Assembly: GCA_964552055.1 (NCBI GenBank)
Contig: CAZKFL010000004.1
Coordinates: 28,892 to 91,219 of the forward strand
Source: an uncultured bacterium
Lineage (GTDB): Bacteria > Chlamydiota > Chlamydiia > Chlamydiales > 2-12-FULL-49-11
DNA length: 62,328 nt
Direction of reading: 5' to 3'
Shown here: positions 4,660 through 36,272 of the stretch, piece after piece
Layout: each line of letters starts with the position of its first letter
How positions within the stretch are numbered: position 1 is the first letter of the stretch
The notes under the pieces: generated by a model
The model's input: only the letters and a program-made list of their open reading frames with translations
Told to the model about the DNA's origin: nothing
The model's database searches: none
Program-made: the position numbers and the translations under genes

Positions 4660-5730
4660 ATGTTTGATCTAGAAAATAAAAAATCAGATGTTGATGGAAA
4701 GGATCACGATTTTCTTCCTAATAAAGAATATGTTACTTTGGTTGCTGATCTTAAAAAGAGGGTTCAAGAATCTCAGGTAAAAGCATTTGTGTCTGTCAAT
4801 AAGGAGCTTATTAAGCTTTATTGGGAAATTGGTAAAGCCATTATTGAAAAGCAAAAAGAGTCTAGTTGGGGCTCTAAATTTGTAGATAGACTTGCTAAAG
4901 ATTTAAGATCGATGTTTCCTGAAATGCAAGGGTTTTCTCTAAGAAATGTACGGTATATGGTTAAGTTTGCGAGAGAATATCCAGAATTTTCAATTGTGCA
5001 GCAGGTTGCTGCACAATTGCCATGGGGACATAACATGCTTATCTTAGATAAATTGGGCGAGATTGAGGCGCGAGTTTGGTATGGTGAAAAAACATTAGAA
5101 AATGGATGGAGTCGTAGTGTGCTTTCCCATTGGATTGATAGTAATTTATACGAGCGGCAAGGGAAAGGGATTTCAAATTTTAAAGATACTCTTATTGCGC
5201 CTCAATCTGATTTGGCTAGGGAGATGCTAAAGGATCCATTTTGCTTTGATTTTGTTGCTCTCAGGAAGGACTTTGATGAAAGGGAGTTGGAAAATGGGCT
5301 TCTAGATCATATTCAGAAATTTTTATTGGAACTAGGTGCAGGATTTGCCTTTGTTGGCAGGCAGGTTCATCTTGAAATTGGCGGGCAAGATTTTTATGTG
5401 GATTTGCTTTTTTATCATTTGAAGCTGAGGTGTTATATTGTAATAGAGTTGAAAGCGACAGAATTTAACCCAGAGTATTCAGGTAAGGTAAACTTCTATC
5501 TAACGGCTGTGGACAAATTACTTAAGGCGCCAGATGATAAGCCAACAATTGGGATGATTTTATGTAAGACAAAAAATAAAATTGTTGCGGAATATGCTCT
5601 TCAAGATATTCGAAAACCGATCGGCATTTCTGAATATGAAACAAAAATCATAGAGTCGCTTCCAGATAACTTAAAAAGTTCGTTACCAACTATTGAAGAA
5701 ATTGAAGAGGAACTCTGCCAGAGATTATGA
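4660..5730 (+). CDS. DUF1016/YhcG family PDDEXK nuclease-domain protein
   Basis: LYWEIG, GFS.RN..YM..FA, QLPWGHN, KDPF.FDF, LELGAGFAFVGRQ, DLLFYH..LRCYIVIELK. Confidence 0.92.
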   Translation: MFDLENKKSDVDGKDHDFLPNKEYVTLVADLKKRVQESQVKAFVSVNKELIKLYWEIGKAIIEKQKESSWGSKFVDRLAKDLRSMFPEMQGFSLRNVRYMVKFAREYPEFSIVQQVAAQLPWGHNMLILDKLGEIEARVWYGEKTLENGWSRSVLSHWIDSNLYERQGKGISNFKDTLIAPQSDLAREMLKDPFCFDFVALRKDFDERELENGLLDHIQKFLLELGAGFAFVGRQVHLEIGGQDFYVDLLFYHLKLRCYIVIELKATEFNPEYSGKVNFYLTAVDKLLKAPDDKPTIGMILCKTKNKIVAEYALQDIRKPIGISEYETKIIESLPDNLKSSLPTIEEIEEELCQRL

Positions 5731-6881
5731 AAAAAGCATTGGTAATTGGTTTGGGAGTGAGTGGCAGAGCTGTAGTGCAATACTTGTTGCAGCAAGGCTA
5801 TGAAGTGGTGGCTGTTGATAGGGCTGTGGCTGTGGATTTTACTTTGTGTCCTGTGTTTTTAGATGATCACGAATTTGCGGTTTTTGATTTCGATATTGTG
5901 GTGGTGTCTCCGGGAATACCGCTTACTCATAGATTGTATCAGAAGGCGATTGATTTAGGTGTTGAGGTGATTGGTGAGGCGGAGCTTGCGTTTAGGGAGC
6001 TGAAGAATCGGGCAATTGGGGTGACGGGATCGAATGGAAAAAGTACGACGGTTATGGCGATTACTCATGTGTTAAATGAGAGTGGGAGGAGGGCGAGAGC
6101 TCTTGGAAATATTGGGGTGCCGTTAATTTCTGTGGTGGGTGATTTGGAGGAGGATGAAATTGTTGTTGCGGAACTGAGCTCTTTTCAGCTTGAGACTTGC
6201 AGGGCGAAGGTATTTGATGTGGCGATGATTTTGAATATAACGCCGAATCATTTGGATCGGCATGGGAGTATGGAGAATTACATTCTTGCAAAGAGGAGGA
6301 TTTTTGATTGTGTTAAGAAGGGTGGTGTTTATGCGGAAGATCTCGAAGGTGGTGATTATGTATGGTTTGCGGTGAACTATTTTGGTGTGACTAGGGAAGA
6401 ATATCTCAATGCGATGAAGAGTTTTAAGAGGCTTGCGCATAGGATGGAATTTGTAGGAGAGATTCGGGGAGTGAAGTGCTATAACGATAGTAAGGCAACA
6501 ACGATGGACGCTGTTGCATATGGTGTCAAGGCGATTGGGAAGGATATTATTTTGATTGCAGGCGGCCGGCATAAGGGGGGAAGTTTTTCAATTTGGAATG
6601 AGTGTTTTCCGGGAATAGTGAAGGCGATTTTTTTGATGGGAGAGGCCAGGCATTTGATTGCAAGTGAACTTCGAATGGATATTCCGATTGAGCTTGTCGA
6701 AACTTTAGAGGAGGCAATTGAAAAAGGGTTGCAAGTAGCAAGGTTTGGTGATAATCTGGTTTTATCCCCTGGATGTAGTAGTTATGACATGTTTCGTAAC
6801 TTTGAAGAGCGTGGGGAGGCGTATAAAAAAGGGTTAGAAGGTGAATCGAAGAGATACGATCCTAATTTCAGTTCTAGTTAA
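5727..6881 (+). CDS. murD: UDP-N-acetylmuramoyl-L-alanine--D-glutamate ligase (short, 384 aa)
   Basis: GLGVSG, VVSPGIP, GVTGSNGKSTT, ELSSFQLE, NITPNHLDRH, NDSKAT, LSPGCSSYDMF.NFEERG. Confidence 0.95.
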   Translation: MKKALVIGLGVSGRAVVQYLLQQGYEVVAVDRAVAVDFTLCPVFLDDHEFAVFDFDIVVVSPGIPLTHRLYQKAIDLGVEVIGEAELAFRELKNRAIGVTGSNGKSTTVMAITHVLNESGRRARALGNIGVPLISVVGDLEEDEIVVAELSSFQLETCRAKVFDVAMILNITPNHLDRHGSMENYILAKRRIFDCVKKGGVYAEDLEGGDYVWFAVNYFGVTREEYLNAMKSFKRLAHRMEFVGEIRGVKCYNDSKATTMDAVAYGVKAIGKDIILIAGGRHKGGSFSIWNECFPGIVKAIFLMGEARHLIASELRMDIPIELVETLEEAIEKGLQVARFGDNLVLSPGCSSYDMFRNFEERGEAYKKGLEGESKRYDPNFSSS

Positions 6882-7482
6882 TATGGCGCTTTTGATAGCG
6901 TTATTTGTCTTTGCAATTAAGCCAGCAACACCGATTGAGATTGCCAAGGTGAGTTTACAGGGAGAGAAGAAAACTCTAAAAAATAGTCCTCCTGAAGAAA
7001 AAGTTTCCCTTGATCAAGTTGATAATCTTTTAAGTAAATTTGTTGCTCAAGAGGTTAAAGCAGAGGTTGAACAAATTGTTGCCGAGATTATTGAAAAACC
7101 GGTTCCTATAATAGATTCAAGTCGTAAGGAAATTATTGTTAAACAAGGTGATAGCCTAGACAAGATTGCAAAAACTCACCATACAACTGTTTCTGAAATT
7201 ATGAAAATTAATCGGTTGCTTGATAGCAGGCTAAATATTGGTCAAATTTTATATGTACCGATTGTTTCAGAATTTACGAGTGAATCTAAACCTTTACCAC
7301 CAAGCATCCCAAGCGCAAGCAATAAAGCTGAAGCCAAATATTATATTGTCAAACATGGCGATAATCCGTGGACAATTGCGATTAAAAACGGAATAAAAGT
7401 CGAAGAACTTCTTAAGTTAAACAATCTTGATGAAAGTAAAGCTAAGAAGCTCAAACCCGGCGATAAGCTTCGGATATACTGA
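6841..7482 (+). CDS. nlpD: Membrane-anchored protein with two LysM domains (chlamydial NlpD)
   Basis: N-terminal TM helix; two LysM motifs (IVKQGDSLDKIA, YIVKHGDNPWTIA); lies between murD and ftsW. Confidence 0.85.
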   Translation: MNRRDTILISVLVNMALLIALFVFAIKPATPIEIAKVSLQGEKKTLKNSPPEEKVSLDQVDNLLSKFVAQEVKAEVEQIVAEIIEKPVPIIDSSRKEIIVKQGDSLDKIAKTHHTTVSEIMKINRLLDSRLNIGQILYVPIVSEFTSESKPLPPSIPSASNKAEAKYYIVKHGDNPWTIAIKNGIKVEELLKLNNLDESKAKKLKPGDKLRIY

Positions 7483-7545
7483 GAGTGATTCAAAAATGAG
7501 GATGCCGGCAATGAAAAAACCAATTTTTGAAACACGATCAGTATA
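7475..7545. mobile_element. 71-bp internally deleted MITE of the TATACTG...CAGTATA family; supplies the nlpD stop codon
   Basis: Ends tatactgagagtgattcaaaaa / ccaatttttgaaacacgatcagtata match the ends of the 219-bp elements at 34155 and 36054, in inverted orientation; TA at both ends. Confidence 0.85.
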
Positions 7546-7715
7546 TACTCATGACAGTTTAAAGACCCAGATTTTTCGCAGCAGAATCGTTTTAGTTCAA
7601 TTAGGCGAAGCCGTCCGCTGAAGAGGGCTCTGTTTAAAATCAGGCTTGATGAAGCGGAATTGAAATAAAAAGATTCCGCAATGAAAAAGAGGGTGTTTCA
7701 ACTGGAATGAGTATA
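7544..7715. mobile_element. 172-bp MITE of a TATACTC...GAGTATA family, sharing a TA with the 71-bp element
   Basis: TIR tatactcatgacagtttaaagaccc vs reverse complement tatactcattccagttgaaacaccc (21/25); internal gcggaat...attccgc hairpin. Confidence 0.8.
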
Positions 7716-7717
7716 TA

Positions 7718-8821
7718 ATGAAGTATAGATTCGGACTCTTTGTAACTATAGTCACAATTTTTTTGTTAGGTGTGATTATGGTGTTTAATACAACATCTGC
7801 CGAAGTTATTGATAGAGGTTCCGAACTCCAATCGTATCTTTCGATGGGGAAACAAATTGCATTTTCTTTATTTGGGGTATTTGTCGGATATCTCATTTAT
7901 CTATTTGGCTATGAAAAACTGATTGATAATGGATATCTTCTATTAGGATTGTCTTTTGTCTTATTAGGTCTTGTATTTGTTCCTAAGATCGGAATGCACA
8001 TTAATGGCGCATATCGCTGGATTAATGTTTTTGGAATATCCTTACAGCCATCTGAATTTGTGAAGATAGTCCTTCCTATATTTTATTTAAAGCTTTTAAG
8101 AACTTCAGGAGAAGTGCTTACATTTAGGAAATTTTTCTTTTGGCAGTTCATTTTATTAGCTCCTATCCTTTTGATTATGATTGAACCAGATAACGGAACA
8201 GCTGCGATATTGCTTGCAACTCTAGTGATATTATACTTTGTAACAGAAATTCGGTGGATGTACTGGGTATTACCAATTATTGTTGTTGCTCTTCTTGGCG
8301 TAACGCTTGGTCTTAGTATGAAGCATGTAAGAGATCGAATTCATATCTATCTACATCCGGAAGCCGATCTTTTAGGTAAAGGGCATCAACCCTACCAGGC
8401 AAAAATTGCAGCGGGATCGGGTGGATTAGTCGGAAAGGGACTCGGAGAGAGTTTGCAAAAATATAACTACCTTCCGGAGGCTAGAAGTGATTATATAGCA
8501 GCGATCTATGCAGAGGAGTTTGGCTTTATAGGTGTCTTCTCACTGATCATTTTATATATGGTAATTTCCGTATTCGGATTTAGCATAGCAGTTACAGCGA
8601 AAACTCAAGAAGGGTATTATCTTGCAACAGTGTTTACATTTATGGTCTCCCTGCAAGCCTTTTTAAATTTAGGTGTTGTCTCGGGACTTTTGCCAAGCAA
8701 AGGGACCAACCTACCCTTTTTTAGCCAAGGCGGATCATCGCTACTTGCTAATATTTTTATGATTGCCATTATTATGAGTGTTCAGCCAAAGGAGATCCAA
8801 TGCGAAAAAAGATTGTCATAG
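7718..8821 (+). CDS. ftsW: SEDS family peptidoglycan polymerase FtsW
   Basis: RWI..FGISLQPSEFVK, EPDNG, GKGLGES.QK..YLPEARSDYI, LLPSKG..LPFFSQGGSSL. Confidence 0.95.
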   Translation: MKYRFGLFVTIVTIFLLGVIMVFNTTSAEVIDRGSELQSYLSMGKQIAFSLFGVFVGYLIYLFGYEKLIDNGYLLLGLSFVLLGLVFVPKIGMHINGAYRWINVFGISLQPSEFVKIVLPIFYLKLLRTSGEVLTFRKFFFWQFILLAPILLIMIEPDNGTAAILLATLVILYFVTEIRWMYWVLPIIVVALLGVTLGLSMKHVRDRIHIYLHPEADLLGKGHQPYQAKIAAGSGGLVGKGLGESLQKYNYLPEARSDYIAAIYAEEFGFIGVFSLIILYMVISVFGFSIAVTAKTQEGYYLATVFTFMVSLQAFLNLGVVSGLLPSKGTNLPFFSQGGSSLLANIFMIAIIMSVQPKEIQCEKRLS

Positions 8822-34154: not shown

Positions 34155-34373
34155 TATACTGCTCGTGTTTCAAAAATTGGTTTTTTCTTCGATATATATT
34201 CCCATCTTTAAATTTGGCTCGTGTCCCACTAAAAAGTGTTCACAGAACACTTTTTTTAACGCGGGCCCCTTCTAGTGCAAATAGCACTTTGCCTGAGACA
34301 CCAGCTTCGCTTAATTCAAATCTGGGGATTTCAGACCCCAAAAATTCCCAATTTTTGAATCGCTCTCAGTATA
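34155..34373. mobile_element. 219-bp MITE, TATACTG...CAGTATA family, copy 1
   Basis: 26-bp imperfect TIRs (tatactgctcgtgtttcaaaaattgg / ccaatttttgaatcgctctcagtata); same length as and colinear with 36054-36272; internal hairpins. Confidence 0.9.
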
Positions 34374-36053: not shown

Positions 36054-36272
36054 TATACTGATCGTGTTTCAAAACTTGGTTTTTCCTTCGTTATAAATGC
36101 CCATATTTAAATTTACTTCGTGTCCCACTAAAAAGTGGCCATAGGACACTTTTTTTAACGCGGGCCCCTTCTAGTGTAAATAGCACTTAGCCTGAGGTAG
36201 CGGCTTCGCCTAATTCAAATCTGGGTATTTCAAACCCCGAAAATTCCCAATTTTTGAACCCCTCTCAGTATA
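36054..36272. mobile_element. 219-bp MITE, TATACTG...CAGTATA family, copy 2
   Basis: Colinear with 34155-34373, with scattered substitutions; TA-flanked. Confidence 0.9.

Follow-up and report, generated by a model that had tools for sequence, protein, structure and literature searches.

How did the cell-division gene ftsW come to be separated by a spacer of 235 nt from an upstream gene with which, in related genomes, it overlaps or nearly so? The question is raised by a stretch of DNA of 62,328 nucleotides (hereafter the window, which is G000:C4:28892-91219 in our numbering) from contig CAZKFL010000004.1 of assembly GCA_964552055.1, the genome of an uncultured environmental chlamydia (G000), which amounts to 1.98 Mb in 77 contigs, has 38% G+C and is 97% complete. 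The two genes concerned are a LysM-domain gene at the chlamydial nlpD position (6841..7482, + strand; 213 aa; from the open reading frame (ORF) list and Pfam) and an intact ftsW of 367 aa (7718..8821, + strand; Pfam FTSW_RODA_SPOVE, E = 5.6e-79). An initial annotation, made from the sequence alone, had described the whole intergenic region as two elements, of 71 bp (7475-7545) and of 172 bp (7544-7715), standing on one common TA, and the sequence reads exactly so: the gap is made up solely of these two elements, here called E1 and E2, each of which has terminal inverted repeats (TIRs). [quoted passage not shown]

The two elements and their families

The end of the nlpD-like gene reads CGG ATA TAC TGA (7471-7482), and the start codon of ftsW lies at 7718. 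E1 (7475..7545, + strand), a family-1 MITE of 71 bp counted with its flanking TAs, carries terminal repeats of 24 nt that are 88% complementary; E2 (7544..7715, + strand), a family-2 MITE of 172 bp counted in the same way, has terminal arms of 38 nt at 79% and an inner pair of arms of 31 nt at 81%. The TA common to both (7544..7545, as the sequence itself shows) stands between two further copies of a single ancestral target TA, at 7475-7476 and 7714-7715; the second of these directly precedes the start of ftsW as TAATG, and the ATG still stands in a TAATG context because the duplication of the TA restored it. The core of E1 opens with six bases that serve as last codon (TAC) and stop (TGA) of the nlpD-like gene, so that the present stop codon lies inside the MITE, as the initial annotation had supposed. 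Its naming of the upstream gene as nlpD agrees with the position of the gene and less well with its domain content, which by Pfam is LysM only: two LysM stretches are recognized, and no M23 peptidase domain.

Elements of this kind are scattered through the genome, in which about 43 complete TA-flanked elements of 71-219 bp are found together with solo ends; the ORF list gives no ORFs of note within them. When the whole genome was searched without bias for TATAC...GTATA pairs at a distance of 40-400 bp whose end bases are complementary at 17 or more of 24 positions, 37 pairs were returned against none in a mirror-repeat control, and the 13-mers at the element ends occur 11-12 times where 0.1 occurrences would be expected. 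All 39 of the complete elements that were tabulated have a TA on both sides, and no longer duplication. The initial annotation would have been refuted by a lack of other genomic copies, and there are many. Family-1 ends are matched 95 times genome-wide, corresponding to about 33 paired elements with preferred sizes of 174 bp, 217-219 bp and about 70 bp, and with an A end and a B end that consistently differ from each other. E1 falls within a small class of elements of about 70 bp that derive by internal deletion from the 174-bp and 217-219-bp forms: it aligns with the other copies of its size, over its inner 39 nt it shows 97% identity to a portion of a 216-bp copy on contig C29, and its ends are identical to those of several other family-1 copies. 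The 219-bp form has 48 matches in the genome, and two of its copies lie in the window itself, at 34155..34373 and 36054..36272 (both on the + strand; G000:C4:63046-63264 and G000:C4:64945-65163), 88% identical to each other. Full-length copies of E2, with 93% identity, are found at C46:1021-1192 and C18:10321-10492, and the genome has a sister subfamily of about nine copies at about 75% identity. Both families have ends in TATACT and a TT(C/G/T)AAA motif at positions 15-20.

The two families also extend beyond this genome. One congener, G001, has 36 matches to the E2 family, at up to 94% identity, and 15 to family 1, to which a second congener, G002, has 30; the E2 family was not found in the two congeners other than G001. 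Copies of the E2 family in G000 and G001 are 90-94% identical (G001 loci L034, L035, L037, L039 and L041), as against 73% at the DNA level for the ftsW genes of the same two genomes, an excess which suggests that the MITE, or its parent insertion sequence (IS), may recently have spread horizontally or undergone a burst. The repeat is present as well in public records of metagenome-assembled genomes (MAGs) of Chlamydiia, Parachlamydiales and Waddliaceae; our searches of the literature turned up no account of MITEs in Chlamydiae, nor of these IS630-type families with their parent lineage.

Since the genome is a draft of 77 contigs, several of which end in these repeats, it might be suspected that the junction is an artefact of assembly, into which repeat copies were collapsed or mis-joined. 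The junction, however, is situated 36 kb into a contig of 91 kb, typical read pairs are longer than the elements, and within its subfamily the window's E2 has diverged furthest, with 10 of its 172 positions off the family consensus, all of them differences private to this copy. Moreover, the same 4104 nt, including both elements, occur at 100% identity on a 51.7-kb contig of GCA_013558375.1 (L115, JACCDG011032102.1), although this assembly, in which contig numbers run above one million, may derive from the same reads, and the genome may have been binned from it as a bulk or host assembly. An artefact appears to us extremely unlikely.

Some details of E2 may be recorded here. Relative to the consensus, its left inner arm has an A-to-G change and its right arm a T-to-C change, such that an A-T pair becomes G-C (7580-7587 paired with 7675-7682); this is a single compensatory pair in the stem, and an unmatched change adjoins it. 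The right arm also contains two mini-ORFs, both without a Shine-Dalgarno (SD) sequence: one of 9 codons runs from an ATG at 7681 to a TGA at 7708-7710 and ends 7 nt before the ftsW ATG, and the other, ATG-AGT-ATA-TAA (7707-7718), has a stop that overlaps the ftsW ATG as TAATG.

The empty site and the order of insertion

The orthologous junction of nlpD and ftsW was compared in 20 relatives, in which the two genes overlap or have a spacer of at most about 15 nt between them; the initial annotation had asked for this comparison, and no relative shows an unrelated long spacer. The congeners read CGT ATC CAA TGA AG (G002), AGA ATC CAA TGA AG (G001) and ATT AAC TAA TGA AG (G003), that is, as ATGA or TAATG overlaps. 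When E1 and E2 are deleted and one TA is kept, the junction becomes CGG ATA TAA TGA AG, which aligns base for base and without a gap to G001, G002 and G013 and has the same length as the junction of the closest relatives; the TAATG overlap reconstructed in the initial annotation is thus colinear with these relatives and exact in length. Reconstructions that keep no TA or two TAs do not fit the junction of the relatives, and duplication of 4 bp (TATA) is excluded because only six bases separate the two cores. At the level of sequence, the reconstruction set against the relatives demonstrates the duplication of the TA. The site is empty in G001, which carries both families, and in G002, which carries family 1; the insertions are lineage-specific, because relatives with the same MITE families have the site empty. 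The nlpD alignments of the relatives end at residue 212/213 (208 in two distant relatives), and since they stop earlier, the final Y of the nlpD-like protein is peculiar to this genome. A metagenome scan with a degenerate 24-mer from the left flank, which would catch filled and empty alleles alike, gave no matches.

The sequence of events that we propose begins with an ancestral junction of the form ...CGG ATA TAA TGA AG..., in which the stop of the nlpD-like gene overlapped the start of ftsW as TAATG. The TA was duplicated at each insertion, to give the three TAs now present. E2 probably arrived first, and E1 would then have taken the TA at the left end of E2, an order read from divergence and weakly suggested by the differences that E2 has accumulated and by the ends that E1 shares with other copies. 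In the process the upstream protein gained one residue (Y), its stop now being placed inside E1.

E1 and E2 are not the only elements to stand on one TA. Head-to-tail pairs occur at at least seven sites (window 7544-7545, C18:10318, C18:25931, C39:326, C45:454, C46:1018 and C68:1183), and these stacks combine different families. Given 139,114 TA sites, about 90 element-flanking TAs and about 45 insertions, some 0.03 stacks would be expected; the observed number is so far above this expectation that the TA beside the end of a resident element is evidently a strongly preferred target. All three copies of E2 in G000 are stacked, and none of the five G001 copies inspected is.

One of these sites, C18:10255-10492, repeats the arrangement of the window: a family-1 element of about 70 bp is followed by E2, in the same orientations and with a TA in common. 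It might be supposed from this likeness that E1 and E2 arrived in a single event, as one 241-bp composite mobilized through the left end of E1 and the right end of E2. The short elements of the two loci, however, are 79% identical and their E2 copies 93%, and because of this difference we read the window and C18 pairs as two independent stacks. In addition, E2 is found alone at C46 and at five of five G001 loci examined, and stacks of other family combinations occur at at least five further sites, so that the window and C18 loci are both explained if a TA adjoining a resident end was targeted repeatedly. A composite insertion is, in our judgement, very unlikely, and we proceed with two successive insertions.

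Relation to IS630 insertion sequences

A genome of a related genus contains an intact IS of 1121 bp (L024, on G012:C98), which is flanked by TA, has the ends TATACCTAAGGAATTTCAAAAGTT and TATACCCAAGGTGATTCAAAATTT, and encodes a transposase of 352 aa with DDE_3 (E = 2e-34) and HTH_33/29/23 domains; its architecture is that of IS630. Family-1 ends match the ends of this IS at 18 of 24 positions and those of a second IS (L117, in G196), itself 76% identical to the first, at 19 of 24; many genomes of the order contain intact, multi-copy IS related to that of L024. For family 2 the link is weaker: with the register shifted past the TA by hand, the ends of E2 agree with those of another IS630 lineage, with a transposase about 40% identical, at 17 of 24 positions in one case (L129, in G071) and at 15-16 of 24 in two others (L131 and L132). 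Beyond the ends, blastn detects no internal similarity between MITE and IS. In G012, too, a MITE forms a stack, with an intact IS630-type IS whose end it adjoins (L031, ~759-958).

G000 itself retains three decayed fragments of IS630 transposases (C27:12019-12281, C21:33534-33716 and C11:42888-43306). The first belongs to a truncated IS copy, in which 71 residues of the transposase N-terminus (76% identity) and then a premature stop come after a terminal repeat, TATACTCTTCGTGAATCAAAATTT, that matches the B end of E1 at 19 of 24 positions (manual count). Searched for an intact transposase with DDE_3, G000 gave a single remnant of 31 residues; self-BLAST of the assembly gave no IS-sized repeat, and a search with the mariner domain Transposase_1 gave no match, the controls of that search being silent too. 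Two kinds of candidate partner were rejected: intervals of 1.1-3.2 kb flanked by TIRs, in G000 and in other chlamydial MAGs, enclose ordinary genes, and a DDE_3 remnant in G001 (L028) is decayed and without convincing end repeats. The IS630 transposase with matching TIRs that the initial annotation had proposed to look for is thus found intact in related genomes, whereas in this genome it is represented by remnants, and E1 and E2 are probably immobile now, because G000 retains only such decayed fragments. In terms of the features that characterize MITEs of the IS630/Tc1-mariner type, the elements have TIRs, the TA duplication, small non-coding dispersed copies, and ends like those of IS630 elements with a DDE transposase; an autonomous partner was not found within the same genome. 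For their mobilization the evidence is indirect, namely a site filled here and empty in relatives that have the same families.

Expression of ftsW and comparison with known systems

What the insertions meant for ftsW was considered first at the level of translation initiation. With the anti-SD tail taken as canonical, pairing in the 22 nt before ftsW amounts to -3.3 kcal/mol now and to -3.3 kcal/mol in the reconstructed ancestor, and to between -1.9 and -4.1 kcal/mol in the congeners; the values are -8.9 kcal/mol for murG and -8.6 kcal/mol for the next gene. In G000 and in all relatives ftsW is without an SD sequence, and E2 has brought none; the suggestion that the elements may now supply a ribosome-binding site for ftsW finds no support, the pairing being the same before and after insertion. 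No sigma-70-like promoter or intrinsic terminator was found on the + strand between 6700 and 8000. The TATAAT at 7714-7719 was rejected as a promoter, since it overlaps the start codon and, on manual reading, has no -35 box at a usable spacing.

Because there is no SD sequence in G000 or its relatives, ftsW presumably relied on coupling through termination and reinitiation; the ancestral overlap most likely served such coupling, which the insert would have abolished or stretched over 235 nt. The transcript between the two genes is predicted to form two long hairpins, and ftsW would now be initiated independently, at an AU-rich start just 3' of the hairpin of E2. FtsW equals its counterparts in the congeners in length and shares 77-82% identity with them, and its distance to the outgroup (0.58, versus 0.60-0.61 for the congeners) shows no acceleration of rate; as the protein is intact and evolves at a normal rate, its expression evidently suffices. 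A long ORF runs into only one of the 43 elements examined, namely into E1 at nlpD, and the position between nlpD and ftsW is therefore exceptional for the family rather than its habit. E1 and E2 are best read as tolerated passengers, and not as recruited regulatory parts.

The alternative is exaptation, in which the hairpin-forming pair would act at the RNA level and set the ratio of nlpD to ftsW expression, either as a processing or stability site for RNase III or RNase E, of the kind reported for Correia and ERIC, or through a fold that places the nlpD stop by the ftsW start for re-initiation. The predicted fold of the spacer RNA is indeed very stable (-90.2 kcal/mol, z = -7 versus shuffles) and joins to its two hairpins a short helix of 6 bp, which pairs the 3' end of nlpD with the first codons of ftsW; furthermore, ftsW lacks an SD sequence and yet is intact and conserved, the stem of E2 contains one A-T to G-C compensatory change, and MITE-dependent processing of mRNA has a precedent (PMC2229807). 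Hairpins, however, form automatically wherever an element has terminal inverted repeats, and one compensatory pair is anecdotal; of the remaining 42 copies, all in ordinary spacers, none is placed at a start codon as E1 and E2 are; no relative needs such a spacer; and the insert has neither gained an SD sequence nor any Rfam match at E <= 1. We think exaptation improbable.

A further reading, which we hold to be quite improbable, is that the insert is not inert: coupling would be kept across the folded insert of 235 nt and, separately, a transposase tethered to resident ends would target the adjacent TA of its own elements. In the model for the first part, the hairpins might put the nlpD stop beside the SD-less start of ftsW, at the hairpin bases, where terminating ribosomes would re-initiate on ftsW. 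As to the second, the stacking suggests that such a tethered transposase may send new copies to the adjacent TA, which, if true, would be a rule not yet described for bacterial IS630 MITEs.

Our preferred reading, of two successive and tolerated insertions of IS630-type MITEs, has several points weighing against it. The E2 ends resemble those of known IS630 elements only moderately (15-17 of 24); an intact transposase was not found in an assembly that is 97% complete, though, with 77 contigs, a multi-copy IS may have gone unassembled; the canonical anti-SD tail was assumed because the 16S gene is absent from the assembly; the 6-bp helix between the flanks and the one compensatory change in E2 leave room for a role at the RNA level; and both the neutrality of the insert and the loss of coupling are what we infer from these comparisons.

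Read as successive MITE insertions, the locus is a natural experiment, in which an essential, SD-less cell-division gene would have lost its overlapping coupling to two datable MITE insertions and stays intact, and it can be used to ask how SD-less genes are translated in chlamydiae. IS630-type MITE families and their parent IS lineage are hereby documented across environmental Chlamydiae, and the preference of new copies for a TA that adjoins a resident one is a property of the transposase that can be tested. The junction also offers a clean example of a filled versus an empty MITE site in an essential operon, and leaves the known workings of MITEs unchanged.

The genes around the junction complete the picture. 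Upstream of the nlpD-like gene lies murD (5727-6881) and downstream of ftsW lies murG (8800-9822), both identified from the ORF list and Pfam; because murD and nlpD overlap, as do ftsW and murG, the gap between nlpD and ftsW is the sole spacer of the block. Immediately 5' of murD, and overlapping its start, is a gene for a YhcG/DUF1016 nuclease of the PDDEXK type (window 4660-5730; Pfam E = 2.6e-67), and directly 3' of murG is one for a protein of 705 aa carrying a HECT ubiquitin-ligase domain at its C-terminus (window 9957-12074; Pfam E = 5.7e-08), which looks like a candidate for a eukaryote-like effector.

Among known systems, the initial annotation had likened the elements to RUP, Correia and ERIC, as repeats linked to IS630-type transposases; the likeness is by description and in kind, not by sequence, and for RUP the link holds, whereas Correia and ERIC are not so tied in PMC2229807. 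In kind, E1 and E2 are RUP-like IS630-derived MITEs, with every defining feature that can be checked except a live partner in the same genome. RUP, which accompanies IS630-Spn1 in Streptococcus pneumoniae, is like them small and non-coding, with TIRs, TA ends and insertion at TA, and the end repeats of RUP, as of families 1 and 2, are similar to those of an IS of the IS630 family, whose transposase is taken to be the mobilizing one. RUP also tends to land beside other mobile elements (PMC2229807), in parallel with the stacking described here. It differs in its size (107 bp, versus 71-219 bp here), in the phylum of its host, and in that the matching intact IS for the E1 and E2 families is found only in related genomes, the host itself keeping fragments.

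Correia/NEMIS repeats of Neisseria share with E1 and E2 the TA duplication, termini of the TATA type, transcripts with long hairpins and frequent co-transcription with neighbouring genes. Their described functional motifs are an IHF site and RNase III processing, the latter documented, and no transposase partner has been established for them (PMC2229807). The ERIC/IRU repeats of enterobacteria are likewise TA-flanked and MITE-like and are found inside operons; as De Gregorio 2005 is cited in PMC2229807, their transcripts change the stability of flanking mRNA segments. That effect, which was demonstrated experimentally, varies with orientation. The closest comparison is with the IS630-family IS of environmental Chlamydiae themselves (L024, L117 and L129), which have the same TA-flanked TATAC... 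termini as E1 and E2: these IS are autonomous elements of 1.1 kb with a transposase of about 350 aa bearing DDE_3 and HTH domains, whereas E1 and E2 have the ends only.

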